Origin: Candidatus Sulfomarinibacteraceae bacterium
Lineage (GTDB): Bacteria > Acidobacteriota > Thermoanaerobaculia > Thermoanaerobaculales > Sulfomarinibacteraceae
Reading direction: 5' to 3'
Assembly: GCA_963733915.1 (NCBI GenBank)
Contig: CAVTEP010000011.1
Span: 106,388 to 170,387, forward strand
Length of the DNA: 64,000 nt
Positions 36,104 through 54,291 of the stretch are shown here, piece by piece (the stretch's first letter is position 1; the number at the start of each line of letters is the position of its first letter). The translations under genes were made by a program, and so were the position numbers. The notes under the pieces are model-generated. The model worked only from the letters and a program-made list of their open reading frames with translations, was not told the DNA's origin and did no database searches.

Positions 36104-38536
36104 ATGTGGGCACCGGGCGGGTATCGGCGTGTTCGCAGTGCGGCGACTCGGAGCCGCTTTGGAATCGGCGTTTTCGTGTTGGTATGGACCCTGGTCGCGG
36201 CCACACCGACTGTGTGGGCGGACTACTGGTACGAACACTACGCAAGGGCGGAGACGGCGCTCCAAAACGGCGACTGGGGCGCGGCGGTCGAGGAACTCCA
36301 ACAGGCGCTCGAGCGCAAGGGGGACTCCGGCGCGCGGGTGCGGTCCTACGGCATGAAGGTGATCGCCTACTTCCCCTACCTCAAGCTCGGTATCGCCTAC
36401 TACCACCTCGGACAACTCGACGCCGCCCTGCAGGCTTTTCAGACCGAAGAACAGCTGGGGGCCATCCAGGCATCGCGGTCCGATCTCGCCGAGCTCGAGC
36501 GCTATCGCCGCCTGGCCCTCGACGCCCGCGTCGAGGCGGCGGAAGCCGAGGGCGAACGCATCGCGCTGATCGTGCGCAAAAGCCTCCGCGACGCCGAGAT
36601 TCTCGAACGACAGGGCCGGCTGGCCGAGGCGATGGAGGCTCTCAGTGAGGGTCTCGCCGTCGATCCCGAGAATCCGGAAACCGTCGCCAAGATGACGGGG
36701 CTGCGGACCGAGGTCGTCCGGCGGGAACGCGAACGGCTCGACTCCACCCGGGCTGAGGAATTCATCAGACGCGGGAGGACCCGTCTTGATGAAGAGAACT
36801 ACGCCGAGGCGTCGAGCCTCTTCCGCCAGGCCATGGAGATCCGCCCGGGCCCCGAAGCCCAACGTCTCCTCGCGCTCGCGCAAGATGGACTCCTGGCAGA
36901 AATGCGGGCTGAAGAGGATGCCGAATCCAGGCAGGCGGCAATAGTCTCCGGCCTCAACCGGGCTCGCGATCTCGAATCGACCGGGCGGTTTGCCGACGCC
37001 CTCGATCGCCTGCAGCCGGTGCTCGCCGTTGATCCCCAGAATCGTGAGGCTTTGGCGCTCCAAAAACGGATCCTCGATTCTCAGCAGGATTCGGTGATTC
37101 GGGATTCGCTCGGAAAGGCTCTCGCGGAGGCCGAGGCCGAGTTCGCAGCGGGACGCTTCGAGCGCGCGATCTCGGCTGCGAACCGCGCGCTCGCCCTCGA
37201 CCCCGGCAACGCCAAAGCCCTCGAGCATGTTCGAGATTCTTACGGACAGATCAGCCGTCGTCTCCTCGGCTCGCGGACCGTTGAGAACATCCCACCGGCG
37301 ATTCGTTTTGCCGACTTCAGGATTGATCAGGACGACGGTACACGTGCGCAGATAGTGCGAAGCCCGGAGTTCAGGCTGAGCGGAGTCGTCATCGACACCT
37401 CGCCCGTTGAAGTGGAATTCCGGGGTCCGATCGATCGAAAGCTCGAGGGCACCAGTACGAGCCAGCCGGTGGGTGAGATTTACATCACGGAATTCAGTCT
37501 CGACGACAAGCTCGTCGATGGTCCGTCGACTTTTCAGCTGGTGGCGACCGACACGGCGGGACTGACGACGAGCTCCGAGTACATGGTGGTCTACGAGGCT
37601 CCCTTTTATCGGACACTTTGGTTCCAGCTGTCCGTCGCCCTATTTCCCATCGCCATTCTCGCCGGGGTTTGGGCCCGTCGTACACAGCGACGCCGTCAGC
37701 TCATGAGGCGTCGTTTCAACCCCTTTATCGCCGGCGCTCCGGTGCTCGACACCGAAATGTTCTTCGGCAGAGAACAGCTCGTTGAACGCATCCTCCAGAC
37801 AATTCACAACAACAGTCTCCTGCTCTACGGCGAGCGCCGGATTGGAAAGACGTCGCTTCAACATCATCTCAGAAGACGGCTCCTGCAGCTTGACGATCCC
37901 GTCTACCGGTTTTTCCCCGTCTACGTCGATCTCCAGGGGACCCCCGAGTCACAGTTTTTCGCGACTCTTGCGGAGGACGTCTTTCACGAGCTGGAGCTGC
38001 TTCTCGGCGGTATGCGGCCGGGAGAGGGGCTCGATCCGGAGTCGGCGTACGGCTACCGCGAACTGGTCCACGACCTTCGCCGGGTCATCAAGGCGCTCGA
38101 GGGGAGCAGCCCGAAGAAGGTCAAGCTGGTGTTGTTGATCGACGAGGTCGACGAGCTCAACGCCTATGACCCGAGGATCAACCAGCGGCTGCGGAGCCTG
38201 TTCATGAAGAGCTTTGCCGAACACCTCGTAGCGGTGGTGTCGGGGGTCGAGATCCGCAAGCAGTGGGACAAGGAAGGCAGCCCCTGGTACAACTTCTTCG
38301 AAGAGATCGAGGTCACCCCGATCGGGCATGACGATGCGGTCGAGCTTATCACCCGGCCAATCGGCAGCATATTCAAGCTCGACCAGGCGGTGGTCGACCG
38401 GATCATCGAGCTCTCTGAAAGCAAGCCATACCATTTACAGCGACTCTGCGTCGCGCTCGTCAACCGCATGTACGAGCAGGGAAGGCGGAAAATCACCTCC
38501 GCCGACGTGGACGCCGTCACCGGAAGCACCGCGTGA
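36104..38536 (+). CDS. TPR + beta domain + TM + C-terminal STAND-like P-loop ATPase (ATPase A); start uncertain
   Basis: N-terminal hydrophobic/signal segment, several TPRs, TM FQLSVALFPIAILAGVWA, then NPFIAG.PV..FFGRE, GERRIGKTS, LLIDEVD, KPYHLQ. Confidence 0.85.
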   Translation: MWAPGGYRRVRSAATRSRFGIGVFVLVWTLVAATPTVWADYWYEHYARAETALQNGDWGAAVEELQQALERKGDSGARVRSYGMKVIAYFPYLKLGIAYYHLGQLDAALQAFQTEEQLGAIQASRSDLAELERYRRLALDARVEAAEAEGERIALIVRKSLRDAEILERQGRLAEAMEALSEGLAVDPENPETVAKMTGLRTEVVRRERERLDSTRAEEFIRRGRTRLDEENYAEASSLFRQAMEIRPGPEAQRLLALAQDGLLAEMRAEEDAESRQAAIVSGLNRARDLESTGRFADALDRLQPVLAVDPQNREALALQKRILDSQQDSVIRDSLGKALAEAEAEFAAGRFERAISAANRALALDPGNAKALEHVRDSYGQISRRLLGSRTVENIPPAIRFADFRIDQDDGTRAQIVRSPEFRLSGVVIDTSPVEVEFRGPIDRKLEGTSTSQPVGEIYITEFSLDDKLVDGPSTFQLVATDTAGLTTSSEYMVVYEAPFYRTLWFQLSVALFPIAILAGVWARRTQRRRQLMRRRFNPFIAGAPVLDTEMFFGREQLVERILQTIHNNSLLLYGERRIGKTSLQHHLRRRLLQLDDPVYRFFPVYVDLQGTPESQFFATLAEDVFHELELLLGGMRPGEGLDPESAYGYRELVHDLRRVIKALEGSSPKKVKLVLLIDEVDELNAYDPRINQRLRSLFMKSFAEHLVAVVSGVEIRKQWDKEGSPWYNFFEEIEVTPIGHDDAVELITRPIGSIFKLDQAVVDRIIELSESKPYHLQRLCVALVNRMYEQGRRKITSADVDAVTGSTA

Positions 38537-40449
38537 CGGACGCCCGGGCCATCCCCTACGTCGTCGGTCAATGGGTCCGCGGCGAGCGGTTCTACGGACG
38601 CAACGCCCTGATCAGAGAGATCCTTGACGGTCCCCGCAACTCGCTCTGGGTGCTCGGCACACGCCGCATCGGCAAGACCTCGTTGCTCAAGCAGATCGAA
38701 CATCTCACGTCGTCGGAGGACCGTGGCTACGTCCCAGTTTTCTGGGACTTTCAAGGGGCCGAGGACTCCAAGGAGCTGGCCCTCACGTTCTCGGACGCAC
38801 TGCTCGACGCCGAGGAGCTTCTCGAATCCTCCGGTCTCGCGCTCGCCGAAATCGAATCTGACGATTTGTTCGCCAGCATGGCGAAGCTCCGCCGTACGCT
38901 TCGCAGTAGGGGCCATTCGCTGCTCTTGCTGTGCGACGAGGTCGAGGAGCTTCTCAACCTCCAACGCCGGGACCCGGCGCTGCTGCGCAAGCTTCGTCGC
39001 GCCATGCAGTCACAGGACGGTGTCCGCTCGGTGCTCACCTCGTCGATCCGCCTGTGTCAGCTCGCCGAGCAGCGGGATGACACCTCGCCCTTTCTCCATG
39101 GCTTCAGCCCACCGCTCTATATCAGTGGTCTCTCCTCACACGACGCATTCGCCCTCATTCGGCAGGAGCGGTTTCCATCAAAGTCGCGACCTGCAATCGA
39201 CGACGCGGTTGCATCCGAGATCTGTGGCCGTTGTGGCAACCACCCCTACCTGATTCAGCTGGTTTGCAAGCGTTTTCTCGAGCTCGACGACTTCGAGGAG
39301 GCCTGTCGGCAGGTCGCTACCGATCGCATGATTAACTACTTCTTTTCGGTCGATTTTGAAATGCTGTCCGCCACCGAGAAATCGATTCTCCGTCTGATTT
39401 CGGAACAGGGTACGGCGACCGACGAGTCGATTCATGCCGTGATTCAGGCCGACACCGCCGACCGTCACGATGCCCTGCATCGGCTCGAAAACCTCGGGAT
39501 CATCGGCCGTGACGACAATCAAAGCTTCGTGCTACCAAGCGTTTTTCTCCGTCGCTGGCTCGAAGATCTTGCTGTTACCCAACCACGACAACAAACGCCA
39601 CCCGAGTCGCTTCTCGAGGACCCAACGATCTCCGTTCGGACCATCGACAACCGCTACATCCTGCACGAGGAGATTGGCTCCGGCGCGACCGGCGTCGTCT
39701 ACAAAGCCCGCGATGCGCTCCTCGACACCTGGGTTGCCGTCAAGCTTCTCAAGCCCGAGTACACCGCCAACCGCAACACACTCGAGCGCGTCCGCCAGGA
39801 GATCGTCCTGTCCCGCGACATCGCCCACCCGAACATCCTCCGGGTCTATCACCTGGCTTCGTACGATGGCGGAACCTATATCACGATGCAGTGGATCAAG
39901 GGCGGGACGCTGGCGGATGTCATTGCGGAGCGCGGGGCGTTGCCGGCGCCAGAGGTCCTGAGACTTGCGACCAAGCTTTCGTCAGCACTGGCGGCGGCGC
40001 ACAGCCACGATATCCTCCATCGCGACATCAAACCCGGCAACATCCTGGTGGACGAAGAGGGCGAACCCTACCTCGCCGACTTCGGGCTCGCGCGCCTGAT
40101 TGGAGGGCGCGGCCTGACCCAGCACGGGGTCTTTGTCGGCACACCGCACTACTGCTCTCCGGAGCAGGTGGCCTTGAATGAGCTCGACGAACGTTCCGAC
40201 ATATACACTCTGGGACTGGTAATCTTCGAGATGGCCACCGGCCGACGGCCGTTCGAGGGCGAGACGGTGGCCGAAATCCTGGCCATGCAACGGAGCGCTC
40301 CGCCACCGGACCCGATGACGCTTACGCCCGAGATCCCCGGGGAGCTGGCAGCACTGACGCTGCGCTGCCTCGCCAAGGAACCTGAAGACCGGATTTCGCA
40401 CGCTGTGGACCTGGAAGCGGCACTGCACCGGATTGGCGAAGATCTGTGA
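38533..40449 (+). CDS. STAND-like ATPase (ATPase B) fused to a C-terminal Hanks-type Ser/Thr kinase
   Basis: PYVVGQWV..FYGR, GTRRIGKTS, LLCDEVE, GNHPYLIQ; kinase IGSGATGVVY, VAVK, HRDIKPGN, DFG, SPE. Confidence 0.9.
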   Translation: MTDARAIPYVVGQWVRGERFYGRNALIREILDGPRNSLWVLGTRRIGKTSLLKQIEHLTSSEDRGYVPVFWDFQGAEDSKELALTFSDALLDAEELLESSGLALAEIESDDLFASMAKLRRTLRSRGHSLLLLCDEVEELLNLQRRDPALLRKLRRAMQSQDGVRSVLTSSIRLCQLAEQRDDTSPFLHGFSPPLYISGLSSHDAFALIRQERFPSKSRPAIDDAVASEICGRCGNHPYLIQLVCKRFLELDDFEEACRQVATDRMINYFFSVDFEMLSATEKSILRLISEQGTATDESIHAVIQADTADRHDALHRLENLGIIGRDDNQSFVLPSVFLRRWLEDLAVTQPRQQTPPESLLEDPTISVRTIDNRYILHEEIGSGATGVVYKARDALLDTWVAVKLLKPEYTANRNTLERVRQEIVLSRDIAHPNILRVYHLASYDGGTYITMQWIKGGTLADVIAERGALPAPEVLRLATKLSSALAAAHSHDILHRDIKPGNILVDEEGEPYLADFGLARLIGGRGLTQHGVFVGTPHYCSPEQVALNELDERSDIYTLGLVIFEMATGRRPFEGETVAEILAMQRSAPPPDPMTLTPEIPGELAALTLRCLAKEPEDRISHAVDLEAALHRIGEDL

Positions 40450-40453
40450 TTCC

Positions 40454-41803
40454 TCAGAAGCTGTAGATCGCCGACAGGGCATATACGTCCGCGTTCTGCG
40501 AAAGGTCGGCGCCGAGATCGATCTGGAACGAACGGAAAGCGATTCCGACGCCCACGGTCCCGTGGAGGAGGTCTTTCCCCTGTTGATACAGCGCCCGGCT
40601 GAACGGATCGTCGCCGAGATAGCGGAATCTATGGTCAGGATCGTGCCAGACGCCGCCACGGATCGCAATCAGCGGTCTGGTTTTCAAGAAGACATACTCG
40701 GCACCGAGATGGACTTCATTTGCGTCGTCGATCGCCACCAACGACGTGTCCAGCAAAGGCGAGTTGAGTGTCTCACCGATGATCGAATATTCCACCCGAT
40801 CCCACTCGAAGCCGACGGTCAGGCCGCCGTCTGGCGATCGGTAGGCCAAACCCAGACCCCACACATCCGGAAACGCGATCGAGCGGTAGGTCACCGATTC
40901 GAGAATGGTGCCCTCCGGTGCCTCGTTCAATGGCCCGGCTCGGTTGTAGAGCTCGTAGCGGAAGCGCGGCCCCTGACGAAATACGCCACCGAAACGCCAA
41001 CTGTCGGCAAACTGCCACAGCACGCCAATATTGAAGCCCGCATCTGCATCGTCGACGACGAAACTGCTGGAGACCCAGTTGTGCTCGGGAAGGAACGAGT
41101 TTCGCTCCCAGGACGGGTCCGGATAGCTGTCGGCAGCATACGTCGCACCCTGGTTGTCGACCGTTCCGGAGAAGTAGGAAACTCCGAAGCCGAGGCTCAA
41201 TCGATCACTCATTCGATACGCTCCAGAAACGCCAGTTCCGACGATTTCAAGGTCGGTGAACGTCCATTGGTCTTCGTAACGCCTGGTCCCTCCCGTCGCG
41301 GTCAGACCGAAAAGGCCGTTGATTTCCGTCACGATGTAAAAATCGGCTAACTCGTGCCGGTACAGGGCGAGTGACCACCTCGCGCTCGGGTACACGAACG
41401 AGAGGAACGACACCCCAGATGTGGTTTGGTTCGAGGATGCGGTACGGATGCCGTCAACGGTGTCGACGCCGTTGCCAGTCGGCGCCCCCGATACCCGGCC
41501 CCCCAGCGTGAACGGAATCGAGTAGTCACGTCGGCGCAGCTCGACCGAAACCTCCGGCCGCAACAACTGAACCAGACCGGCCGGGTTGGCGAAGGCGGCG
41601 GTGGCGTCGTCGGCCAGAGCAACGAATGCGCCCCCCAAACCCATGCTCCGGGCGCCAGGATTGGAGAAGCTGAACTCAAGCGCCGGCGGCGCCTCCTGCG
41701 CCACCAAAGACCCAGGCAACAGCTGTGCCGCGGCGGCAGCAAAAATGAGCACGAAACATCGCGCCTCAGAACCACGGAGCAGATTCCGATCCGCGCGGCT
41801 CAT
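40454..41803 (-). CDS. FadL/OmpP1-like outer-membrane beta-barrel (copy 1)
   Basis: GARSMGLGGAFVALADDATAAFANPAGL hatch motif; C-terminal SAIYSF. Confidence 0.85.
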   Translation of the reverse strand: MSRADRNLLRGSEARCFVLIFAAAAAQLLPGSLVAQEAPPALEFSFSNPGARSMGLGGAFVALADDATAAFANPAGLVQLLRPEVSVELRRRDYSIPFTLGGRVSGAPTGNGVDTVDGIRTASSNQTTSGVSFLSFVYPSARWSLALYRHELADFYIVTEINGLFGLTATGGTRRYEDQWTFTDLEIVGTGVSGAYRMSDRLSLGFGVSYFSGTVDNQGATYAADSYPDPSWERNSFLPEHNWVSSSFVVDDADAGFNIGVLWQFADSWRFGGVFRQGPRFRYELYNRAGPLNEAPEGTILESVTYRSIAFPDVWGLGLAYRSPDGGLTVGFEWDRVEYSIIGETLNSPLLDTSLVAIDDANEVHLGAEYVFLKTRPLIAIRGGVWHDPDHRFRYLGDDPFSRALYQQGKDLLHGTVGVGIAFRSFQIDLGADLSQNADVYALSAIYSF

Positions 41804-41809
41804 AGATTG

Positions 41810-41870
41810 GATCGTAGCACGGGGAAAAGCCTCAACAGACCCTCATCACGACCTCAGGATTTCATCAAGC
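41810..41870. promoter_or_regulatory. Divergent promoter element: extended -10 on the minus strand plus three CCTCA repeats at 11-bp spacing
   Basis: GATCGTAGCACGGGG..; CCTCA at 41830, 41841, 41852; closely similar to 46075-46135. Confidence 0.7.
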
Positions 41871-41915
41871 GCCGTCCTCCCCAATGAGCCACATTCGAAG
41901 TCGGGGAGGATTGTC

Positions 41916-44501
41916 ATGCACCAGTTCTTGAAGACCGCAACCATTTCATTCGCAGCTCTCATGGTGGCCGCATCGGCTTCAGCCCAGCGCCAGTGGACCG
42001 TTACCGGCGAGGAAGTGCGTGGGTTCGCCGGCATCGACGAAGTGATCCGCGCCCAGATGGTGCGGCACGACATCAGTGCGTCCTCGGTGGCGATCACCAA
42101 GAACGGCCGCCTGGTCTACGCCCGCGGTTACACCTGGGACCAGGCCGATGTCGAGCCGGTGTTGCCGACCTCGCTCTTCCGCACCGGTTCGATCGCCAAG
42201 TCGATCACCTCGATTGCCATCCACCAGCTCATCGAGGATGGGCTCCTCAGCTATGACACCCGGGTGGCTGAGACCCTAGGACTGGAGCCTCCGCCCGGGG
42301 AACCCGCCGACCCGTGGCTCGATCTGGTGACGGTTGACCATCTTTTGACCCACACCGTCGGTTGGGACAAGTACAACGGCGGCATTGACCCGATGGTCTT
42401 CCGGGACCTGTGGGTGGCGATTGCGCTCGGCATCCTGCCACCCCCTACGCGCCACGAGATCGCCACCTTCATGACCGGCGAGCCGTTCCAGTTCTATCCC
42501 GGCACCCGCTGGGCCTACTGCAACTTCGGCTATCTCCTGCTGCAGATGCTGGCCGAACAGGTCACCGGCGTCGATTTCCCCGAGTACGTCCACGACAATA
42601 TCTTCCGCCGGGCGGGCGTCGGACGCGCACGGATGGCCCACTCCCCGCGCGGCGACCTCGCACCGACCGAGCGCGTCTATGTCGGTGACTACGAGGGCGA
42701 TCCATATGCGATGGGCTGGGAGAACGCGTATGCCGCCGGCGGCATGGTGATGTCGGCGCCCGATCTGGCGCGGATCTACACGGCGCTCTTCGACCATCCC
42801 CATGCCTCCGGGCTGCTGCGGAGCGACACCATCGACTCTATGCTTTCCCTCCCCTTCAGCGCATCTCGACAGCAGGGCTACGGACGCGGATGGATCTTCG
42901 AGAAGTTCTTTGTCGATTCGGGCCATACCATCGGCTGGCTGACCGATCCAAATGACGGCCTCGATGTGTACGCACACGGAGGCGGCGGTCCGGGTGTGCA
43001 CGCCATCGCGGCCTGGCGAACGGATGGTATCGGCTTCTTCTGGCTGAGCAACAAGGACCCGCTGGTCGACGACTTCGATGATCTTCCCGAAATCGACCGC
43101 TGGCCGGCGCACGACCTCTGGCAGTCGGTCGGTATCTCACGCGAGACGGTCGGTTCGGCGCCGGTCGAGTCCTGGATCCCCGCCGTGGCCCACAACGCCG
43201 GTGTCGGTAACAGTATCTGGCGGTCCGACGTCGGCCTGCTCAACCGATCGACGCAGACCGATGCCGTCCGCCTCAGGTATTACGACGGTTGGGATGTTGT
43301 CGAACGCGATCTCGAGCTGGCGCCCGGAGAATTGCGCGTGATCCCGGATGTGGTCGGCTGGTTCGGCCGCACCGGCTTCGGCCCCCTCCAGGTCTTTTCG
43401 TCTGAAGCCCTCACCGTGACATCGAGGACCTACAACCAGTCGACGGAAGGAACCTTCGGACAGTCCTTCGATGGCGTCACCGCAACCGGGGGCCTCGAGT
43501 CCGGCGAGTCGGTGGTGCTGATGCAGCTTCGGGAGGATGACGGAGCCCGCACCAACATCGGCGTCCTCAACCAGTGGCGGGGTTTTGCCAAGGTCGAGCT
43601 GGAGCTCTACGACGACACCGGAGCGCTCGTTCACGCTGACACATGGACTATCTCCCCTCTCCACACGTTGCAGGTCAACCGCCCCTATGCAACATTCTGC
43701 GGATGCGTCGACGTCGAGTCGGGCTACGCGGTCATCAAAGTCCGCTCGGGTCAGGACATCTACGTCTACGGGTCGGTGATCGACAACGCCACCGGCGACC
43801 CCACCGCCATCCCGATGAAGGGTGGAGACGGTACCCACAGCCAGTGGATTGCGGCCGCCGCCCACAGCATTGGAGCCCACGACAGCGTGTGGCGGACCGA
43901 CCTCTCTTTGCTCAACCTCTCCGGCGGCCCGGCGACGGCCGAGATCATCTTCCGTCGCGGTGACGGCGCGACAGCCGTGCTCCCCGTCAACGTCTTGGAT
44001 GGCCGGCAGATCCTCCTCAACGACGCCGTGGCACAGCTGGGCATGGCCGGTTCGGGATCGATCGAGATCCACTCCGACCGTCCTCTGCTGGCGAGCTCAC
44101 GCACCTACAACGCCGGCGCGGACGGCACCTTCGGTCTCTTCCTCGATGGGGTCCCGATGGATCAGATGGTCGAAGCCGGCAAAACAGTCTGGCTGCCGCA
44201 GCTGCGGCAGGACGAGGCCTTCCGCACCAATATCGGGCTCCTCAACACCGGTGCCACAACGGCCAGAGTGCGAATCGTCCTCCATGACGCCACTGGTGAC
44301 GAACTCGCCGTGAAACGGAAGCAACTCAGTCCGGGATCGTGGCTTCAGCTTCCCGAGCCCTTCCGCCGGCTCGCCGACCGCAACGACATCGTTGCCGGGT
44401 ACGCGACGGTCGCGGTCGAGTCGGGAGGCGGTGTCATCGCATACGCATCGGTGATCGACAACGCCACCAACGATGGCACGGCCATCTCGATGAAGAAGTA
44501 A
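41916..44501 (+). CDS. Secreted serine hydrolase (class C beta-lactamase fold) with duplicated C-terminal domains
   Basis: Signal peptide; GSIAK (SxxK), YCN, HGG; two repeats of WI..AH..G..S.WR.D..LLN ... RTNIG.LN ... SVIDNAT.D. Confidence 0.88.
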   Translation: MHQFLKTATISFAALMVAASASAQRQWTVTGEEVRGFAGIDEVIRAQMVRHDISASSVAITKNGRLVYARGYTWDQADVEPVLPTSLFRTGSIAKSITSIAIHQLIEDGLLSYDTRVAETLGLEPPPGEPADPWLDLVTVDHLLTHTVGWDKYNGGIDPMVFRDLWVAIALGILPPPTRHEIATFMTGEPFQFYPGTRWAYCNFGYLLLQMLAEQVTGVDFPEYVHDNIFRRAGVGRARMAHSPRGDLAPTERVYVGDYEGDPYAMGWENAYAAGGMVMSAPDLARIYTALFDHPHASGLLRSDTIDSMLSLPFSASRQQGYGRGWIFEKFFVDSGHTIGWLTDPNDGLDVYAHGGGGPGVHAIAAWRTDGIGFFWLSNKDPLVDDFDDLPEIDRWPAHDLWQSVGISRETVGSAPVESWIPAVAHNAGVGNSIWRSDVGLLNRSTQTDAVRLRYYDGWDVVERDLELAPGELRVIPDVVGWFGRTGFGPLQVFSSEALTVTSRTYNQSTEGTFGQSFDGVTATGGLESGESVVLMQLREDDGARTNIGVLNQWRGFAKVELELYDDTGALVHADTWTISPLHTLQVNRPYATFCGCVDVESGYAVIKVRSGQDIYVYGSVIDNATGDPTAIPMKGGDGTHSQWIAAAAHSIGAHDSVWRTDLSLLNLSGGPATAEIIFRRGDGATAVLPVNVLDGRQILLNDAVAQLGMAGSGSIEIHSDRPLLASSRTYNAGADGTFGLFLDGVPMDQMVEAGKTVWLPQLRQDEAFRTNIGLLNTGATTARVRIVLHDATGDELAVKRKQLSPGSWLQLPEPFRRLADRNDIVAGYATVAVESGGGVIAYASVIDNATNDGTAISMKK

Positions 44502-44542
44502 CTCGCATGGAAAAACGAAGGAAGGACAACAGGAGGCCAGCG

Positions 44543-44674
44543 ATGGATACCCCACACCAAGGAAATACGCCACTCTTCTCGAGCACCGGCGAGCCCCGGT
44601 CCGGCGACGTCGCGATCACGTTGCTGACCGCCCTGATCCTCCTCGTCCTCCTGATCGTCGTCGCCGTGCTGTGA
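44543..44674 (+). CDS. 43-aa small protein with a C-terminal TM helix
   Basis: AGGAGG RBS; MDTPHQGNTPLFSSTGEPRSGDVAITLLTALILLVLLIVVAVL. Confidence 0.5.
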   Translation: MDTPHQGNTPLFSSTGEPRSGDVAITLLTALILLVLLIVVAVL

Positions 44675-44682
44675 CGAAGAAT

Positions 44683-46035
44683 TCAAAAGCTGTAAATCGC
44701 CGACAGCGAGTAGGTGTCGACGAGATCCGAGAAATCGGCCGCGAGATCGATCTGAAAGGACTTGAACGCGAGACCGAGGCCCACCGCCGCGTGGATCTCG
44801 TCCTCCCCGGATTGAAACAGTGCCCGGTGGCTGGGGTCGTCCGGGTGGATACTGCGGAAGCGGTGGTCGGGGTCGAGCCACACGCCGGTACGGATGGCAA
44901 GGACCGGTTTGAAATCGAGAAAGGCGTACTCCGCCCCGAGGCGGAACTCGTTGCCGTCATCGGCAACGAGGTAGACCTGCAAATCAAGATCAGGGTCGAG
45001 AGTTTCAGTCACCACGGGATCAAAGCTCGAGAATATTGAAGAGTATTCGACGCGGTCCCACTCGAAACCGACCGCGAGTCTGCCGTCGCGCGATCTGAAG
45101 GCGACGCCGAGCCCGTAGACATCCGGGAATTTCATCGGTGATTCAACGATCAGAATCGTCTCACCGGGCGCGAACGCAGGATCCAGGAATTCCGGTGCGA
45201 GAGGTCCCGCCGTGACGTCGTACACCAACTTGAACTCGGGCCCCAGGCGATAGAAGGCACCGAGGCTCCAGTTCTCGACAAACCTCCACAGCAGGCCTGC
45301 ACTCAGGCCCCAATCCGAGTCGTCAATCGACATCTGCCCGTTGGCGAGCTGGCTCTCGGGCAGGTAGGAGGTCGGACCGAAGGCGTCCTGCAATGTGTCG
45401 ATATCGTCCGGCAGGGACCACTCGAAGGGAGCGTCGAGCCGGCCCTTGAAGTGGACGATGCCGAGACCGAGGCTGAAGCGATCACTGAATCGGTAGGCGC
45501 CGGCGGCGCCGTAACTGACGATGTCCAGCTCGGTCGACCACCTGCGGTCGAACGCGCGAGGGGCCTCCCATCCCGGGAAGAGCCCCTGGGTCGCCGTCTG
45601 AGCGCGGAAGTTCGCCAGCTGGTGCCGGTAGAAAGCGAACGACCACCGCCCCTTCGGGTAGACGAACGAGAGGAATGAAAGCCCGGTGAGTTGCTCCTCC
45701 GATACTGCAGTTCGGAGGCCGTCAACGGTGTCGAGCCCGATACCCGTGGGCTCGCCCTCGTACCTCCCTCCGATGATGTACGGCGTCGAGAAACTCCAGT
45801 GGCGGACTTCTGCCGAAACCTCGGGTGACACGAGCTGCACCAGGCCGGCGGGGTTCGCGAAGGCCGCGGTTGCGTCGTCGGTGAGAGCGGTGAAGGCTCC
45901 ACCAAGGCCGAGGCTGCGCGCACCCGGGTTCGAGAAGCTGAACTCGAAGGTGGAGGGGGTCTCCTGAGCGGACGCAATCGCAGGCGCGATGACCACCGCG
46001 ACGAGCACCCCGAAAAAAAGCCGGTGGGCCTTCAC
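44683..46035 (-). CDS. FadL/OmpP1-like outer-membrane beta-barrel (copy 2)
   Basis: Signal peptide; GARSLGLGGAFTALTDDATAAFANPAGL; C-terminal SAIYSF; paralogue of 40454-41803. Confidence 0.87.
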   Translation of the reverse strand: MKAHRLFFGVLVAVVIAPAIASAQETPSTFEFSFSNPGARSLGLGGAFTALTDDATAAFANPAGLVQLVSPEVSAEVRHWSFSTPYIIGGRYEGEPTGIGLDTVDGLRTAVSEEQLTGLSFLSFVYPKGRWSFAFYRHQLANFRAQTATQGLFPGWEAPRAFDRRWSTELDIVSYGAAGAYRFSDRFSLGLGIVHFKGRLDAPFEWSLPDDIDTLQDAFGPTSYLPESQLANGQMSIDDSDWGLSAGLLWRFVENWSLGAFYRLGPEFKLVYDVTAGPLAPEFLDPAFAPGETILIVESPMKFPDVYGLGVAFRSRDGRLAVGFEWDRVEYSSIFSSFDPVVTETLDPDLDLQVYLVADDGNEFRLGAEYAFLDFKPVLAIRTGVWLDPDHRFRSIHPDDPSHRALFQSGEDEIHAAVGLGLAFKSFQIDLAADFSDLVDTYSLSAIYSF

Positions 46036-46074
46036 ATCCTCTCTCCATGTCTGAGAACCACGGGTTCGACGGCC

Positions 46075-46135
46075 GATCGTAGCACGGGGGAAACCCTCAC
46101 CAGATCCTCATCCCATCCTCAAGTCACGTGGAAGC
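46075..46135. promoter_or_regulatory. Second copy of the divergent promoter element
   Basis: GATCGTAGCACGGGGG..; CCTCA at 46095, 46106, 46117; AAGC at the same offset as in copy 1. Confidence 0.7.
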
Positions 46136-46173
46136 TCGCACCCTAGCTTGGAGTATGAGAGGAGGAATCAGAA

Positions 46174-46839
46174 ATGAACATCAAAGCAATCGCCACCGTT
46201 GCCCTCGCAATAGGTGTCACCTGCGTCTTCTGCGCCCTGTGCCCGAGCACCGCTGACGCAGGCGACGGCCCCTGGTTGCTTCGCATCTCTGGTCTGTCGA
46301 TGAATCCAACGGGCGACACTGTTTACGTCCCGGATACCGGTGAACAGATCGCCTTCGACTCCGGCAAAGGCTATGGATTCGGGATCGATCTCGAGTACCG
46401 CATGTCGCGCCGTCTCGGGATCGACTTCGGGGCCCTCACCGCGACCCCGGTCATCGACGTGCTGATTGACGAGGCCGGCGTAATCTCCGCCAGCGCCCGA
46501 CCGAGGATCACCCCGATCTACGTGGGGCTCAACATCCACCTCACACCGCATGGCACATTTGACGCCTATATCGGACCCGTGCTCGCCTACGTTTTCTTCT
46601 CGAGCTTCGATCTCGTCACCGACCCCTGGTTCTACCGGGAGGGTTTCGTGACCGAGAACGACTTCGGAATCGGAGCCAACGCCGGATTGGACGTACGGCT
46701 CGGTGGTGACGGGTGGCTCTTGAGTGCCAATTTCAAGTACCTCGAAACAACGCTCGTGGCCTCGCCACCCGACGAAAGCATCGGCAGGACCGACATCGAT
46801 CCGATGATCTTCAGCATCGGTGTCGGTTATCGGTTTTGA
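46174..46839 (+). CDS. OmpW-like small outer-membrane beta-barrel
   Basis: Signal peptide, GDGPWLLRI, alternating beta-strand pattern, C-terminal DPMIFSIGVGYRF. Confidence 0.82.
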   Translation: MNIKAIATVALAIGVTCVFCALCPSTADAGDGPWLLRISGLSMNPTGDTVYVPDTGEQIAFDSGKGYGFGIDLEYRMSRRLGIDFGALTATPVIDVLIDEAGVISASARPRITPIYVGLNIHLTPHGTFDAYIGPVLAYVFFSSFDLVTDPWFYREGFVTENDFGIGANAGLDVRLGGDGWLLSANFKYLETTLVASPPDESIGRTDIDPMIFSIGVGYRF

Positions 46840-46906
46840 CCGCTGCGACCAGACTGCCGTTGCAGCGGGCGTCTCCCCACAGGGTGGGCCTCGAGGTGGT
46901 ACAGCC

Positions 46907-47596
46907 ATGAGCCTGATTCGTTTCTCCACTGGGGCTCTGGCCCGCTTCATGCGCAGCCTCGGGCGAAGAGTGCGCGGGGACAATCCCCCGCCGTCGCCCG
47001 CAGGCGATGGTCTCGAAACGGAGGAACGAGAGCAGCTGATCCGACGCGTCCTGAGCTCGATCCACAACAACAGCATTTTGTTGTGCGGCGCCTCGGGCAC
47101 GGGAAAGACTGCGCTGCTGTTTCAGCTCAAGGAACGCCTCGCGACCTGCGGGGACCCGAACACGGATTTCTTCCCCGTCTACATCGATCTGCACGGTATC
47201 CCAGAGAGACTGCTCTTCGCCACCGTGGCCCGAGCCGTTTTTGGACAGCTCGCCCAGCTACCTGCGAGCCGGGCGGCTAGCTTTGGCGCAGACTACGGTC
47301 ACCGAGACCTTGCCAACGATTTTCGCACCGTCATTCGCACGCTCAACACGCGCAGCCCTCGACGGGCCAGGCTGGCCCTGCTGGTCGACGGCATCGACGA
47401 ACTCAACCACTATGATCCGCGGACAACCCAGAAAGTGAGGAGCCTCTTCATGGCAAGCCTCGCCGAAAACATGGTTATGGTCGCGTCGGCAGTGAAGATC
47501 GACAAGCACTGGGAGCAGGAGGGGAGCCCCTGGTACAACTTCTTCGAGGAGATTGAGCTCTCTCCGGCTCGTAGCGAAAAGGGACGTACGGGATAG
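46907..47596 (+). CDS. Stand-alone truncated ATPase A' (paralogue of the 36104 C-terminal domain)
   Basis: REQL..IHNNS.LL, GASGTGKT, FFPVYIDL, LLVDGID, EGSPWYNFFEEIE. Confidence 0.8.
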   Translation: MSLIRFSTGALARFMRSLGRRVRGDNPPPSPAGDGLETEEREQLIRRVLSSIHNNSILLCGASGTGKTALLFQLKERLATCGDPNTDFFPVYIDLHGIPERLLFATVARAVFGQLAQLPASRAASFGADYGHRDLANDFRTVIRTLNTRSPRRARLALLVDGIDELNHYDPRTTQKVRSLFMASLAENMVMVASAVKIDKHWEQEGSPWYNFFEEIELSPARSEKGRTG

Positions 47597-47607
47597 AATG
47601 CCCCGAG

Positions 47608-49071
47608 ATGGACACCTCGAAAGTTCCGGAAAGGTCCGCGACTGACGAATTTCGGCTCGCCGAATGGCTCGTCCAGCCGAGTCTCAACCGGCTTTCTTGT
47701 GACAACCGAGTCATCCAGCTCGAACCAAAGCTCATGGATGTCCTGGTCTATCTGGCGAACAACGCCGGCCAGGTTGTTTCAAAAAACGAAATCAATGACG
47801 CTGTGTGGGCCGACGTTTTCATCACCGAGTCGGTCATCACCCGCTCGATTGCCGGGCTGCGCCGCGCATTTTGCGACGACGTCAAGAACCCGCAGTTCAT
47901 CGAGACCATCTCGAAGCGTGGTTATCGGCTGATCGCCGAGGTCGTCCAAGCGTCGCCCATAGATAAAAAGAAGTCCGGACCTCGATCATCACGACCGACC
48001 GTGCCTTCCGGCACCTCGAGGACGACGGTTCCCTTCGTCGTTGGGCAGTGGGTCCGTGGAGAGAACTTCTATGGCCGGGCGGCGGTTATCGACGAGGTAC
48101 TCGGAGGCAACCGCAACTGGCTGTGGTTGCTCGGCACCCGGAGGATCGGTAAGACCTCGGTGCTCAAACAGCTCGAAAGCCTGGCCATGAGCTCGCCCGA
48201 CATCGGGTTCCTGCCGGTCTTCTGGGACCTCCAGGGCGCCGATCGGCCAGAAGAGCTCCACCTCGATTTTGCTGACGCACTGTTGGATTCCGAAGAACGC
48301 CTCGAACAGGTCGGGATCCGCCTGACAGAGCTTCGGTCCGATGATTGTTTCGAATCGTTGGGACGTCTTCGGCGAAAGTTACTCTCGAAAGACTTGAGAC
48401 TGTTGCTGCTCTGCGACGAGGTCGAAGAACTGATCCAACTCAACCGACAGGATCCATCTATCCTCCGCAAACTTCGTCGCGCGCTGCATTCGAGGGACGG
48501 CATCCGATCGGTGCTGGCATCGAGCAGCCGGCTCTGGCAGCTGGCCGAAACGGACGAGGACACGTCGCCGTTTCTCGACGGGTTCACACCCCCTCTTTCC
48601 ATCGGCGCCCTCGACGACGAGGCGGCGCGGCAGCTGATCCGCCAGACCCAGCTTCCGGCGACGTCGCGTCCGAACTTCAGCGCTGACGAGGTCGAGCGGA
48701 TTTGCCGCCAGTGCGGCAACCATCCCTACCAGATCCAGATTCTCTGTCGTCGAATGCTCGACTGCGGAGATCTCGACGAGGCTATCGAGGAGGTGGCTCA
48801 CGACCGCGCGGTGAGCTTCTTTTTCTCCGTCGACTACGAGCTGCTTGGCGACACCGAGCGCTCGATTCTCTACGTGTTGGCGGAAAAGCCGGAGGCATCC
48901 CCGATCGCAGTGCAGCAGCAACTGGAGGACTCATCCAAGCCGGTGGCGACAGGACTCGCCGCCCTCGAGAGCCTCGGTTTTGTGGGCAGGAAATCAAATG
49001 GCGGGATCGTCATCAAGAGCCAGTTCTTGCGCCGCTGGCTCAGCGAACGGGCCAACCCCCAGGCAGAATAA
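47608..49071 (+). CDS. CadC/OmpR-type winged-helix DNA-binding domain + STAND-like ATPase B'
   Basis: LEPKLMDVLVYL..VW...LRRAF.DD..NPQFIETISKRGYRL; then PFVVGQWVRG, GTRRIGKTS, LLCDEVE, GNHPYQIQ. Confidence 0.9.
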   Translation: MDTSKVPERSATDEFRLAEWLVQPSLNRLSCDNRVIQLEPKLMDVLVYLANNAGQVVSKNEINDAVWADVFITESVITRSIAGLRRAFCDDVKNPQFIETISKRGYRLIAEVVQASPIDKKKSGPRSSRPTVPSGTSRTTVPFVVGQWVRGENFYGRAAVIDEVLGGNRNWLWLLGTRRIGKTSVLKQLESLAMSSPDIGFLPVFWDLQGADRPEELHLDFADALLDSEERLEQVGIRLTELRSDDCFESLGRLRRKLLSKDLRLLLLCDEVEELIQLNRQDPSILRKLRRALHSRDGIRSVLASSSRLWQLAETDEDTSPFLDGFTPPLSIGALDDEAARQLIRQTQLPATSRPNFSADEVERICRQCGNHPYQIQILCRRMLDCGDLDEAIEEVAHDRAVSFFFSVDYELLGDTERSILYVLAEKPEASPIAVQQQLEDSSKPVATGLAALESLGFVGRKSNGGIVIKSQFLRRWLSERANPQAE

Positions 49072-49119: not shown

Positions 49120-50313
49120 TCAATCCTCGGTCGCCACCACCATTTTCAGCATTTCGCTGCCCGCCAACAGAAAGGCGCCGGTGCCGTAATCCATGCTGTC
49201 GTGAGCGGTGACTGAGCTCGGGTCATAACCGATGAGCTGCACCCAACCGAGCCTGCCGTCCGGCCGCAGCGCCCAGTTGAGCGCTTCCCATCCCCGGTGC
49301 ACCGCCGGGAGAGAGGCGTCGGGGTCCAAAAGACCGTTGTTCACACCCCAGGCCAGACCGAATACCAGAAAACCCGTGCCACTCGATTCGGGTTTTGGGA
49401 ACTCCTCGGGATCGAGGAGGCTCGAGGGCCAGAATCCCTCTTCGCCCTGAACCGCGATCAGGGCCGCCGCCATGTCGCGGAAAAGCTCCTCGTAGCGCGG
49501 ACGCTCCGGATAGTCCTCCGGCATGTGCGCGAGCACCAGCGCCAGCCCGGCGAAAACCCAGCCGTTGCCGCGAGACCAGAAAACCTTGTGGCCGTTGGTC
49601 GTGCGAGGCTGCGATCCGTCCTCCTGAATGAGATAGCTTCCGTCGCCATACCACAGGTGTTCCTCGCGGTCATAGAGGTGGTCGTAGGTGTCCCACCACA
49701 TGCCGTTCATGAGATCGAGGTAGCGGCGGTCGCCGGTCGCCTCGGCCACCAGCGCCATGGTCGGTGGGGCCATGAAGAGGGCGTCGCACCACGACCAGTT
49801 GTCGTCCTCGGCCCAGCCCACCACCGGCCCTGGGCGCGGTTCTGCGATCATTTGGTCGAGGCGTTCGATCGTGGACGCGATCATTCTCGGTTCAGCCGTC
49901 TCGAGAAAGATGCTTGCGTATGTCTGGGCGATGCAGAGATCGTCTGCGTGGCGCATCCGCGGACCGGGTTGCCACTCGTTGCGTTCCGAGATCTCGATCG
50001 CCGCATTCAGATACTTCGGGTGCCCGGTCGCCTCGGAGGCCGCCATTACTCCCGCAAAAAACGCGCCGCGCACCCACCCGGTGTCACTCAGCTCCTGAAA
50101 GCCGCCATCCGGCAACTGCGCCTCGTAGAAGAAATTGTTGATCTGCCAGTCAAACGCGCGGGACATGACGGTAGTGATGTGCGGTCGGGTGAGGATGTCT
50201 CGGGCGGGGATCTCGGTCCGCTCGACGTTTTTGGCGCTCTCGCCGCACCCCATCAGGAGAACGAATCCACACGCAGCCAGGGCGCGACGAAGCAACGGCG
50301 CACGAATTCTCAC
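49120..50313 (-). CDS. Glycoside hydrolase family 88/105, probable lipoprotein
   Basis: HADD, WCDALFMAPP, FWSRGNGWV, ESSGT; lipobox-like LMGC. Confidence 0.88.
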   Translation of the reverse strand: MRIRAPLLRRALAACGFVLLMGCGESAKNVERTEIPARDILTRPHITTVMSRAFDWQINNFFYEAQLPDGGFQELSDTGWVRGAFFAGVMAASEATGHPKYLNAAIEISERNEWQPGPRMRHADDLCIAQTYASIFLETAEPRMIASTIERLDQMIAEPRPGPVVGWAEDDNWSWCDALFMAPPTMALVAEATGDRRYLDLMNGMWWDTYDHLYDREEHLWYGDGSYLIQEDGSQPRTTNGHKVFWSRGNGWVFAGLALVLAHMPEDYPERPRYEELFRDMAAALIAVQGEEGFWPSSLLDPEEFPKPESSGTGFLVFGLAWGVNNGLLDPDASLPAVHRGWEALNWALRPDGRLGWVQLIGYDPSSVTAHDSMDYGTGAFLLAGSEMLKMVVATED

Positions 50314-50335
50314 TGGTTATTCCCCCTCTGCGTCC

Positions 50336-51193
50336 CTACCCGGGACGGCTCATCCTCACGATCCGGTCGGTGACGTCGTCCTTCATGTTGCGTAACAGGC
50401 CCAGGGTGTAATCTCCGACGTTGAGTGTCGGGTCCTGGACCAGCGGCGTCAGATCCATGGCAAAGCTCAGCCGCTGGTACTTGTCGACCTCGTGAGACTC
50501 GTTGAAAGTCGCGTTGGACAGGTAACGACCCTCGATCGCCAGGTCATACCGTTTGCCGCCTGTGATCTGTGAGTCATAGACCCCACACAACGCCTCGGCG
50601 ATGTTGGCGCGGTCGTACAGCCGCAACAGCTGCTTGTCCCCGTCTGACAGCCAGTCGAGGCCCCGCCACACCTCGCATCCGTAGACCTTGGTGGGGCGCT
50701 TGTCTGCCGGCAGTTTTCTCAGGGCGGCGATCGCCCGCAGGCAGCAGGCGACATGGGTGTCGTGCTTGTCCGCCGGATTGTGCAGGTAAACAACCTCGGG
50801 GGTCGCGCCCTCGAAAATCGCTTGCAGATAGATGGCGACGTCATCCCGCGATGCGTCCTTGACGACCGCGCTCGGGAAGCCAAGCTGGATCTGGCAGGCG
50901 TAATCGCCGACGAGCGCCGCCTTGCGCTGCTCCGAGACCCGCACCTTCCGCATCTGCTCGTCCGTGTACTTCTCGTAGGCGCCGCTGCGGGCGCTGCCGG
51001 CGCCGTCCGTGACGGTGACACCACTGAACCAACGGTCACCCTGATGGAAACACTGGAGAATGCCATGGAGGGCCATCAGCTCGATATCGTCCTGGTGCGC
51101 CCCCACCGCGAGGTGGGTCGTTTTTGCGAGCGCCTCCGCGACGGTAGAACCGTCCTGGACATAGACATCGGCGTCAGGGTTTTTCAGCTGCAT
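50336..51193 (-). CDS. PIG-L/LmbE-family deacetylase
   Basis: AHQDDIE, R..EQ..AA, HNPADKHDTH. Confidence 0.85.
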   Translation of the reverse strand: MQLKNPDADVYVQDGSTVAEALAKTTHLAVGAHQDDIELMALHGILQCFHQGDRWFSGVTVTDGAGSARSGAYEKYTDEQMRKVRVSEQRKAALVGDYACQIQLGFPSAVVKDASRDDVAIYLQAIFEGATPEVVYLHNPADKHDTHVACCLRAIAALRKLPADKRPTKVYGCEVWRGLDWLSDGDKQLLRLYDRANIAEALCGVYDSQITGGKRYDLAIEGRYLSNATFNESHEVDKYQRLSFAMDLTPLVQDPTLNVGDYTLGLLRNMKDDVTDRIVRMSRPG

Positions 51194-51284
51194 CGTCGGC
51201 TCCCCCCGCGGACCGGGCACTACTCTCGGCATCCGGCGGGCGTTTTCCAACCTCCATCATAACGTGGGCTTGGCCGACGGCAGG

Positions 51285-53054
51285 CTAGCCGCCGCTCTCC
51301 CGCCAGATCCCGGGAACCACCCGGGCCAACCCGAGCCCGGACGCGACGGCGACCGCGAGGCAAACAGCGCCCTGGGTGGGTTGGCCGTGGAGCAGGGCTC
51401 CGGTGCCGAACAGCGCGGAATACACGAATGTACAGCCGAAGACCCAGCCCAGAAAAGCCAGAGAAAGGCTGTCGCGCGGCCCTCCGGTCTCGTCGGGACC
51501 TACCACCCTCGCCCAGCCTCGCCCGGCGGGCCGGACCTTGCGATAGAAACGGAGCAGGGTCTCGGTGTCGGTCGGTCTGGTCGCGAAGGTGACCACAAGC
51601 CAGACGATGGTCGTCAAAACGACGGACCACACCAGGGCTGCGTGGGAGGAGAGCTCCAGACCGGATTTGCGGGCCGCAAATAATCCCAACGCGATGGTGA
51701 ATGAGGAGGCCATGGCCGCGATCTCGGACCACGCATTGATTCGCCACCAGAACCAGCGCAGGAGATAGAGGAGGCCGGTACCGGCGCCGATGGAGAGCAG
51801 CAACTGGAACGCCTCGCCGGCGGTCGAGAGCAGGAAGACCGTGGCCCCGGAAACGACCATCAGCACCGCGGTCATCGCCCGCGACAACCAAACCAGACGG
51901 CGTTCGGAAGCGTCCGGCGCGAGGAAGCGCCGATACAGATCGTGCACCAGGTAGGAACAGCCCCAGTTGAGGTGGGTGGACATGGTCGAGACGTAGGCCG
52001 ACAACAGCGATGCCACCAGCAGGCCGAGCAATCCGGCCGGCAGCAGGGTCAGCATCGCGGGGTAGGCGAGGTCGTTTCCGATGAGATCGTCGGACACGTG
52101 CGGCAACGCCGTCTTGATGTCGCCGAGAGTCGGAAAGACCAACAGCGAGCAGAGGGCGACGATGATCCACGGCCACGGCCGCAGGGCGTAGTGGGCGATG
52201 TTGAACCAAAGGGTGGCCGCCATGGCGTTCTTCTCGTCCTTGGCGGCCAGCATCCGCTGGGCGATGTAGCTGCCCCCGCCGGGTTCGGCGCCCGGATACC
52301 AGACGGACCACCACTGGATGGTGAGGGGGATGATCAGAACCGACAGCGTCAACCCCCAGTTCGAAAAATCGGGCAGCAGCCGCAGGGTCGCAGGATCGAT
52401 CTTTGCGACCAGACCCGAAAGACCGCCGACGGCGGGTTGCGACAGCGCCACGGAGGCGGCGACGACGACGCCGATCATGGCAATCACGAACTGCACCATG
52501 TCTGAGACAAGCACCCCCCACAGCCCGGATATAGCCGAGAAAACGATGCAAATCAGGCCGCAGACGATCACCGTCTGCAGCCGGCTCCAACCGAGCATCA
52601 CATTGGCTATCTTCGCCGCCGCCAGGGTCACCGAGGCCATGATCGCGCAGTTGAAGAAGAGTCCCAGGTAGACGGCGCGAAAACCGCGGACGAAGGCTGC
52701 CGAGCGTCCCGAGTAGCGCAGCTCATAGAACTCGAGATCTGTGAGCACCCCCGATCGCCGCCACATGCGGGCGTAGAAGAACACGGTCAGCATGCCGGTC
52801 AGAAGGAACGCCCACCACGCCCAGTTTTGGGAAACCCCACCGCTGCGGACGAAATCGGTGACCAGGTTCGGGGTGTCGGTCGAAAAGGTCGTAGCCACCA
52901 TCGAGGTGCCGATCAGCCACCACGGGGCAGCGCGTCCCGAGGCGAAGAACTCGTCGGTTCCGGTACCGGCCCGGCGGGCAAAGAAGACGGCCGGCGCAAA
53001 GGCCGCCGTGAGACAGATGGCGATCACGATCCAGTCGATCGAGGCAAGCTGCAT
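51285..53054 (-). CDS. Sodium:solute symporter (sugar-type)
   Basis: GTSMVATTFSTDTP, WYPGAEPGGGSY.AQRM, STMSTHLNWG.SY. Confidence 0.9.
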   Translation of the reverse strand: MQLASIDWIVIAICLTAAFAPAVFFARRAGTGTDEFFASGRAAPWWLIGTSMVATTFSTDTPNLVTDFVRSGGVSQNWAWWAFLLTGMLTVFFYARMWRRSGVLTDLEFYELRYSGRSAAFVRGFRAVYLGLFFNCAIMASVTLAAAKIANVMLGWSRLQTVIVCGLICIVFSAISGLWGVLVSDMVQFVIAMIGVVVAASVALSQPAVGGLSGLVAKIDPATLRLLPDFSNWGLTLSVLIIPLTIQWWSVWYPGAEPGGGSYIAQRMLAAKDEKNAMAATLWFNIAHYALRPWPWIIVALCSLLVFPTLGDIKTALPHVSDDLIGNDLAYPAMLTLLPAGLLGLLVASLLSAYVSTMSTHLNWGCSYLVHDLYRRFLAPDASERRLVWLSRAMTAVLMVVSGATVFLLSTAGEAFQLLLSIGAGTGLLYLLRWFWWRINAWSEIAAMASSFTIALGLFAARKSGLELSSHAALVWSVVLTTIVWLVVTFATRPTDTETLLRFYRKVRPAGRGWARVVGPDETGGPRDSLSLAFLGWVFGCTFVYSALFGTGALLHGQPTQGAVCLAVAVASGLGLARVVPGIWRESGG

Positions 53055-53192
53055 TCGGGTAATCCTTCCTGGTGCAGATTCTACGACGGGTAGCGCCGGT
53101 GCGCGGGGTGGGTGAGAATGGTCATGCAGAGAACGGGGCAAGGTGTGCATCGCAGCTGGAGTGGCAGTGAGCACAGGGGCGCGGGAGGACAC

Positions 53193-54275: not shown

Positions 54276-54291
54276 GGGATCCACGAATTGT

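Follow-up and report, generated by a model that had tools for sequence, protein, structure and literature searches.

Transmembrane signalling in bacteria is usually sorted into one-component, two-component, extracytoplasmic function (ECF) sigma factor and Ser/Thr kinase systems. In FecA-FecR-FecI, an outer-membrane protein, an inner-membrane transducer and a cytoplasmic regulator serve a regulon of outer-membrane proteins. AfsR, of the same kind as MalT and IniR, is a transcription activator of the signal transduction ATPases that have numerous domains (STAND), and in eukaryotes NAIP and NLRC4 form a cytoplasmic immune pair of sensor and helper NLRs. The closest described grammar to that of the locus analyzed here is nSTAND2, a predicted two-gene STAND conflict operon with a proposed hetero-multimer; the same source names the Npun2340/2341 family among the MNS-type STANDs (accessible part of PMC8195603). 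Our locus occupies positions 36104-49071 of the window, by which we mean the whole 64,000-nucleotide stretch of Candidatus Sulfomarinibacteraceae DNA that was analyzed, and encodes two pairs of adjacent STAND genes, A-B and A′-B′, together with several outer-membrane β-barrels.

The system is real, conserved and modular. Its conserved unit is a FadL-type barrel, the receptor A and a STAND of the B type that has a kinase, a winged helix-turn-helix (wHTH) domain or an ECF sigma factor fused to it. Judged from its sequence, it probably forms a STAND-to-STAND relay across the envelope that controls exported proteins without a histidine kinase. Such a relay had been proposed in an earlier note on this DNA; the co-occurrence of A and B, their separate clades, natural fusions and the parallel divergence of B and the A ATPase speak for it, whereas the two equivalent modules that the proposal included do not stand.

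All eight open reading frames (ORFs) of that note lie at the places and on the strands it gave. The GTGA overlap between A and B (38533-38536) and the 11-bp gap between A′ and B′ (47597-47607) are present, as are the motifs common to A and A′ and to B and B′ in the alignment. Pfam assigns tetratricopeptide repeats (TPR) and a STAND-type ATPase to A, an ATPase and a kinase to B, a wHTH and an ATPase to B′, and the FadL family (twice), OmpW and a β-lactamase-family hydrolase to the remaining genes. Sequence identity is 52% for A-A′, 54% for B-B′ and about 29% for A-B, and a tblastn search found the four to be the sole ATPase domains of this type in the 4.65-Mb genome. We corrected the probable start codons of the hydrolase (41916) and A′ (46907), each preceded by a ribosome-binding site, and added two promoter boxes and a 55-residue ORF (44507-44674) to the features:

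36104..38536, + strand: receptor A (Pfam, hydrophobicity, AlphaFold2 model, alignments)
38533..40449, + strand: B, STAND ATPase with winged-helix domain and Hanks-type Ser/Thr kinase (Pfam, alignment)
40454..41803, - strand: FadL-family barrel 1, the second, lineage-limited copy (Pfam, profile match)
41811..41895, both directions: divergent promoter region 1
41811-41819: leftward extended -10-like element of region 1
41830-41867, + strand: four repeats of region 1 at 11-bp spacing
41890-41895: -10-like CACATT of region 1, after a 22-nt spacer
41916..44501, + strand: exported serine hydrolase of the β-lactamase family, candidate B′ target (Pfam and motifs)
44507..44674, + strand: 55-residue peptide with a hydrophobic helix at its C-terminus, conserved, candidate feedback regulator
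44683..46035, - strand: FadL-family barrel 2 (Pfam, AlphaFold2)
46076..46149, both directions: divergent promoter region 2
46076-46084: leftward extended -10-like element of region 2
46095-46121: three CCTCA repeats of region 2
46144-46149: -10-like TAGCTT of region 2, after a 22-nt spacer
46174..46839, + strand: OmpW-like small barrel, first gene downstream of box 2 (Pfam)
46907..47596, + strand: A′, a soluble, truncated copy of the ATPase core of A (alignment)
47608..49071, + strand: B′, OmpR/CadC-type wHTH with a B-type STAND ATPase, candidate activator of boxed promoters (Pfam)

Comparison with described STAND systems

The earlier note had not recognized the system as a described one, and the literature that we searched, Leipe 2004 lying outside its scope, yielded no equivalent of an A-B-barrel system. 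No description appears in the accessible parts of PMC7159879, PMC7826278 (where the word 'ATPase' does not occur), PMC5760070 and PMC12578637, nor in that of 10.64898/2026.01.04.697583, whose supplements may classify the A and B clades.

Like the nSTAND2 operon, as far as the accessible part of PMC8195603 describes it, the locus combines two adjacent STAND genes, a proposed hetero-multimer and a variable effector on one partner. The features that define nSTAND2 are nevertheless absent: A and B both keep their Walker A and B motifs, the effectors are not GT4 or HEPN but kinase, wHTH and ECF, and there are, in addition, a receptor in the membrane, a barrel and an operator. Neither GT4 nor HEPN occurs in the loci or in the 69 of 150 representatives scanned for output domains, and an inactive effector-bearing STAND, an nSTAND2 trait, was not seen, since the degenerate A′ bears no effector. 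The nSTAND2 model PF20702 scores 21.9 bits against the B of the window (cut-off 24) and does not match its A; at E ≤ 0.001 it finds 5 of the 95 B rows and none of the 88 A rows.

The two-gene STAND conflict operon predicted in the accessible part of PMC8195603 also lends itself to a reading of the locus as an anti-phage or conflict system of paired STANDs, in which A would sense an invader at the envelope, to which B or B′ would respond by triggering growth arrest or defence genes. In L334, the gene after a distant A-like gene encodes a STAND that passes the nSTAND2 cut-off, TIR, SIR2, CHAT or caspase domains are present in distant relatives, and occurrence is patchy (7/301 genomes of the phylum, 19/251 of the class and 4/81 in the family of G369). 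We still consider a conflict role improbable. PADLOC has no match for the ATPases of A, B and B′, with matches in B confined to the kinase domain and one weak match in A′ (E 8e-4); on the flanks, 9 of 103 ORFs from 29 loci match, mostly via generic domains. Further, the sensor part of A is conserved in the alignment rather than hypervariable, the outputs of the clade are regulators and the boxed genes encode transporters and hydrolases. No relatives were found in viral contigs, and the cassette occupies the same chromosomal site throughout the genus. The nearest relatives of the locus are those of Ca. Sulfomarinibacter; one distant match (25%) is on a plasmid.

Membership of nSTAND1 was rejected, as the architecture differs: there is no FGS or WD40 sensor joined to an effector-associated domain or a conflict effector in one chain. 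The match of A to PF20703 (32.9 bits, cut-off 27.1) is weak, covers 250 of 379 positions and is equalled by several AAA models. An MNS-like STAND P-loop, with Walker A and an hhhhDE Walker B, is present in both A and B, and the best solved match to the B profile is SSO1545 (PDB 2FNA, PF01637; E 7.5e-6). In common with MNS-type and PF01637 proteins there are the GxRRxGK[ST] Walker A, the hhhhDE Walker B, a GxP-like motif and, in B, the winged-helix domain. The arginine of the SPLFGR segment of SSO1545, in contrast, is absent in A (SPWYNFF) and B (SPFLHGF), and A has no winged-helix domain.

As in NAIP-NLRC4, a sensor STAND is predicted to nucleate an effector STAND, but the present system is bacterial, membrane-spanning and apparently regulatory. 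The layout resembles that of FecA-FecR-FecI in its outer-membrane protein, inner-membrane transducer, cytoplasmic regulator and regulon of outer-membrane proteins, and one relative, P0185, carries the Reg_prop/Y_Y_Y sensor of hybrid two-component systems. In place of an anti-sigma factor, a histidine kinase and a receiver there are two STAND domains; Pfam finds no TonB-dependent receptor, FecR-type anti-sigma factor or ECF sigma factor in the cassette, the last occurring only fused to B in relatives. MalT and IniR join a STAND ATPase to a DNA-binding domain and multimerize to activate envelope or transport genes (accessible part of PMC5760070); B′ has the same combination and would act likewise. 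MalT, IniR and AfsR have their own sensor in the same chain, whereas B′ lacks one and is linked to a second STAND, separate from it and in the membrane.

The receptor, its B-type partner and the barrel

Apart from its signal peptide, A contains a single hydrophobic helix (about residues 504-525), which lies ahead of a basic stretch; the TPR region of A is therefore predicted to be periplasmic and its ATPase cytoplasmic, as expected of the periplasmic TPR receptor claimed earlier. In a single-sequence AlphaFold2 model of the periplasmic part (overall pLDDT 66, pTM 0.42), repeats of a long and a short helix are modelled with pLDDT 80-98 over about residues 110-340, alongside a β domain of low confidence; the fold matches generic TPR only, with query TM-scores ≤ 0.15. 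In the alignment, the ATPase of A terminates after its helical domain, whereas in B and B′ a helical domain with the GxP motif precedes a winged-helix domain and A′ has neither. The Walker A motif GERRIGKTS and the Walker B motif LLIDEVDEL are each found in 78 of 88 A rows, all variants retaining GK and DE, respectively. Even more widespread is SPWYNFF (87 of 88), which aligns via B with the SPLFGR segment of SSO1545 and is a putative partner-binding face.

The genomic neighbourhood of A was compared in GTDB loci representing the best 80 of 188 relatives (Acidobacteriota, Woeseiaceae, Caldithrix and others; five duplicate other loci in the set). All 48 loci with 3 kb on each side contain B, so that A and B homologues co-occur almost always, the outcome that the neighbourhood test suggested earlier had sought; 44 contain a FadL-type barrel, and B lies directly downstream of A in 59 of 77 loci. 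Among 80 metagenome loci, 15 have enough flank, with B in 14 and the barrel in 13. In the phylum of G064, 34 of 167 genomes hold A (two of the 34 are unpublished and were counted there only), and 16 loci there with longer contigs were examined. The barrel lies ahead of A in 12 of them and B comes after A in 12, a recurrence of the order barrel-A-B. B′ homologues occur in 17 of 60 other genomes of the family, all 17 of which also hold A; kinase B is at the locus in 4 of these and cut by a contig end in one. In L055, L074, L087 and L116, cassette genes are split into several ORFs, probably by long-read errors.

A and B form separate clades in a quick tree of 104 rows (SH-aLRT 99/99); the B clade has its kinase, wHTH and other outputs intermixed. 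In relatives' loci, B is fused to an ECF sigma factor or to a kinase and an ECF sigma factor; other fusions are to AraC, SpoIIE and wHTH-FHA (69 of 150 representatives scanned). The A domain precedes the B domain in one chain in P0185 and P0236, each a single sequence, the latter possibly an assembly artefact. A second tandem fusion like P0185 was not found among the 45 matches of a long search with it, and P0188, which looks like a frameshift fusion, was left uncounted. Local alignment to a natural A+B fusion placed all 30 A-domain rows on the B half. P0185 as a whole comprises a propeller/Y_Y_Y sensor, A and B, resembling a hybrid two-component protein. L327 (6699-13186) holds a split form of the propeller-A arrangement with B-CHAT as partner. 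Among P0317-P0334, GAF-receiver-A proteins, some named Saprospiraceae, and B-TIR or B-caspase proteins come from contigs of equal length, which suggests that they form adjacent pairs.

The two halves of A diverge in step with different partners. In distance correlations over 51 loci, B follows the A ATPase (partial r 0.59) and not the A periplasm (-0.08), whereas for the barrel the correlation is stronger with the periplasm (0.64) than with the ATPase (0.22). Thinning to 27 loci gave the same picture (B with ATPase 0.48, with periplasm -0.12; barrel with periplasm 0.63, with ATPase 0.10). In 25 kinase loci, the kinase domain tracks the A ATPase (0.61) and not the periplasm, and the link between barrel and periplasm is 0.61 after control for both. 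This pattern fits two contact pairs, B with the A ATPase and the barrel with the A periplasm. The single neighbourhood examined for a propeller-sensor A, which has a B partner and no barrel, also speaks for the relay.

The barrel is a core part of the unit. It matches PF03349 (FadL/TodX) above cut-off, and among solved structures its profile best matches the BAM complex 9HIV, in its chain F (E 2e-12), with CymD and FadL close behind. Two FadL copies are present, as noted earlier, but their duplication is lineage-limited; barrel 2 is the copy retained in relatives with a single barrel, and its AlphaFold2 model (pLDDT 95.6) has 14 long strands after a 47-residue N-terminal segment, in keeping with the barrel and N-terminal hatch of the FadL/TodX family. 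FadL-fold BamG and PorV are protein-binding partners (accessible part of PMC12578637), but the cassette lacks BAM and type IX genes and the barrel falls far short of the NCBIfam thresholds (BamG 24.8 vs 250 bits, PorV_fam 38.8 vs 90).

The role of the barrel is the least certain step of the proposed relay. It could merely be a co-regulated importer or output of a real A-to-B relay, A alone sensing a periplasmic molecule or the state of the envelope, so that one membrane would be crossed and not two. Solved FadL homologues are mostly channels for hydrophobic molecules, both barrels of the window face a boxed promoter, as targets would, and 12 of the 43 family genomes that lack B′ have a barrel of this family. 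In addition, the same A ATPase clade also occurs with other sensors ahead of it, either Reg_prop/Y_Y_Y propellers that have a membrane helix or GAF and receiver domains. We nevertheless consider an accessory barrel unlikely, given that barrel divergence tracks the A periplasm, that the FadL fold has protein-binding members in BamG and PorV, and that the operon starts with the barrel in 18 of 64 GTDB loci and 12 of 16 loci of the second phylum, mostly beside kinase-only B genes without a box.

Outputs, the CCTCA box and A′

The earlier note had predicted a kinase and a transcriptional output, and these are provided by B and B′, respectively, joined by an ECF sigma factor in relatives. The absence of a histidine kinase was likewise borne out, since HisKA, HATPase_c and receiver domains are all unmatched by Pfam in the eight proteins. 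The catalytic motifs of the B kinase are intact, and both B and B′ keep Walker A and B, with G, T, S and DE invariant and K nearly so in B. About 60 Ser/Thr kinase domains, several clustered in tandem, were matched in the window genome (G000).

A triple CCTCA repeat at 11-bp spacing occurs twice in this genome, both times in a divergent spacer, and with one mismatch allowed a third site appears in front of a further OmpW gene, one that is convergent with a third barrel. At this third boxed promoter (L001 9524-11418, G000:C8), the converging barrel is short and of FadL type, and on the divergent side a prolyl oligopeptidase gene lies broken over two frames. Alignment by hand of 34 sites from other genomes showed 22 nt between the last repeat and a hexamer that in most has A as its second and T as its sixth base, a spacing that places the last half-site at the -35 position. 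Class II activators have their site at this position, and PhoB/OmpR-type regulators bind direct repeats at about 11-bp spacing. Both OmpR/PhoB/CadC-type traits are thus present, as the repeats near -35 are matched by a Trans_reg_C wHTH in B′ (PF00486, 60 bits). A standard sigma-70 scan found 0 promoters, which is expected if the -35 element is replaced by an activator site.

Scored with a matrix trained on other genomes, the three independent G000 sites reach 32-41, compared to permuted maxima of 15-23; three borderline sites (17-20) were dropped as lying within the null range. A pattern search found the box in 17 of 17 relatives with B′ and in 9 of 43 without (reversed control 7/61). Within the genus, the box is present in 5/5 genomes with B′ and 0/5 without; it is absent from 5/5 genomes whose sole B is of the kinase type. 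Only B′ among nine wHTH matches in G000 has a box within 3 kb. A variant of the box stands ahead of the A-containing operon in 20 of 27 rows with a divergent wHTH-B, four duplicates among them, and the strict threshold is passed by 2 of 26 loci without a wHTH gene, both cut by contig ends. B′ is therefore the candidate activator and likely activates the CCTCA-boxed promoters.

One could object that A, B and B′ are independent neighbours, with B′ a one-component regulator or the box read by some other CadC-like protein: G000 has four other wHTH domains with 51-55% identity to that of B′, and similar boxes lie beside CadC-like genes elsewhere. This is highly improbable, considering that B and B′ lack a sensor domain and A lacks an output domain, that translational coupling, fusion proteins and the tracking of the A ATPase by B argue for a link, and that box and B′ coincide within the genus. 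A different wHTH-ATPase gene in L002 (7078-9359, G000:C3), with a WD40-like tail and broken over several frames, lies near another OmpW-like gene, and B′ of Woeseiaceae-type loci has an extra C-terminal region without a Pfam match.

Boxed genes encode exported proteins; in other genomes they are OmpW-like barrels, TonB-dependent receptors, a serine hydrolase and an S41 peptidase. The hydrolase and OmpW of the window look like regulated targets, and since OmpW, A′ and B′ all lie downstream of box 2, B′ would induce itself. In Woeseiaceae-type loci (L067 4755-6395 and others), the gene that comes after the box is lipoprotein-like (DUF5666/DUF2807) and runs in the same direction as A. The SxxK, YxN and HGG motifs of the hydrolase are intact. 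No Pfam family matches its C-terminal region (43146-44498, + strand), which contains an internal duplication and is found again in many proteins of the genome; the ESM Atlas neighbours of this region are unnamed Acidobacteriota clusters, and it is possibly a sorting or surface domain.

A′ has neither TPR nor membrane helix and ends after the ATPase core. All nine copies have lost the DE pair of Walker B (DG in six, DH in two, NE in one) and the RR of Walker A, while SPW-N-FEEI and the QRLRS arginine are invariant. Soluble, truncated and without the DE pair, this lineage-limited copy is not a second receptor; it is predicted to be catalytically impaired and may act as a decoy. Both A-B pairs of the earlier note thus exist, but its two equivalent modules are ruled out by the truncation and degenerate ATPase of A′. 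The 55-residue peptide is conserved in 17 matching loci rows, some of them duplicates, and in L036 its gene lies directly behind the box. For small membrane peptides with a feedback function, MgrB offers an analogy, and a similar role here is a guess.

Short contigs of one estuary metatranscriptome, in which 7% of the words were found, span parts of the hydrolase, OmpW/A′ and the A′-B′ junction; contigs cannot show transcription. Next to B′, window positions 49120-56324 hold a carbohydrate-use cluster of GH88, a PIG-L deacetylase, a sodium:solute symporter and two GH5 genes.

A proposed relay and its significance

We propose the following course of events for the relay. The barrel would bind a hydrophobic ligand or protein, or hand it to the conserved N-terminal tip of A, upon which A would cluster in the inner membrane. 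Its ATPase would dock on B or B′ via the invariant SPWYNFF face, driving nucleotide exchange and assembly. Assembled B′ would fill the three or four tandem half-sites next to -35 and recruit sigma-70 RNA polymerase, and B would phosphorylate its targets, in relatives an ECF sigma factor. Finally, A′ and the 55-residue peptide, both predicted to be expressed from boxed promoters, may damp the response.

Several observations weigh against this relay. Recombination inside A or compartment-specific rates could yield the same distance correlations, in which kin pairs are not independent, and the conserved tip of A carries no extra signal with the barrel (0.07, rod and β domain controlled). The A genes of L217, L218, L322 and L323 have no nearby barrel, and those of L322 and L323 no nearby B. 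TIR, SIR2, CHAT or caspase domains are borne by distant B-types. As for the operator, 11 of 22 wHTH loci pass the strict threshold, training sites included, and four loci with the order wHTH-B, A, B, barrel have no box. L159 and L161, from genomes without B′, have a similar CCTCA box between CadC-like wHTH-TPR and TonB-dependent-receptor-like genes; because this box lies beside an unrelated CadC-like gene, the box is a mark of the wHTH clade and not of this system only.

Taken more broadly, we tentatively suggest that these proteins may form a separate class of bacterial signalling systems, in which a sensor-STAND nucleates a response-STAND and which would also include hybrid fusions, a brake in the form of a pseudo-ATPase and, as outer-membrane receptor, a barrel of the FadL fold. 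Its inputs might comprise the TPR rod, the β-propeller and GAF, and its outputs kinase, wHTH, ECF sigma, AraC, phosphatase, TIR and caspase. Perhaps such a class would be the bacterial counterpart of sensor/helper NLR pairs, put to use in gene regulation. The operator makes the system testable, as box, B′, A and barrel can be rebuilt with a reporter even though the hosts are uncultured. If the relay is true, a receptor-ATPase/response-ATPase relay would constitute a new signalling class in several phyla and give non-defence STAND clades a concrete role, and FadL-fold barrels could act as signalling receptors.

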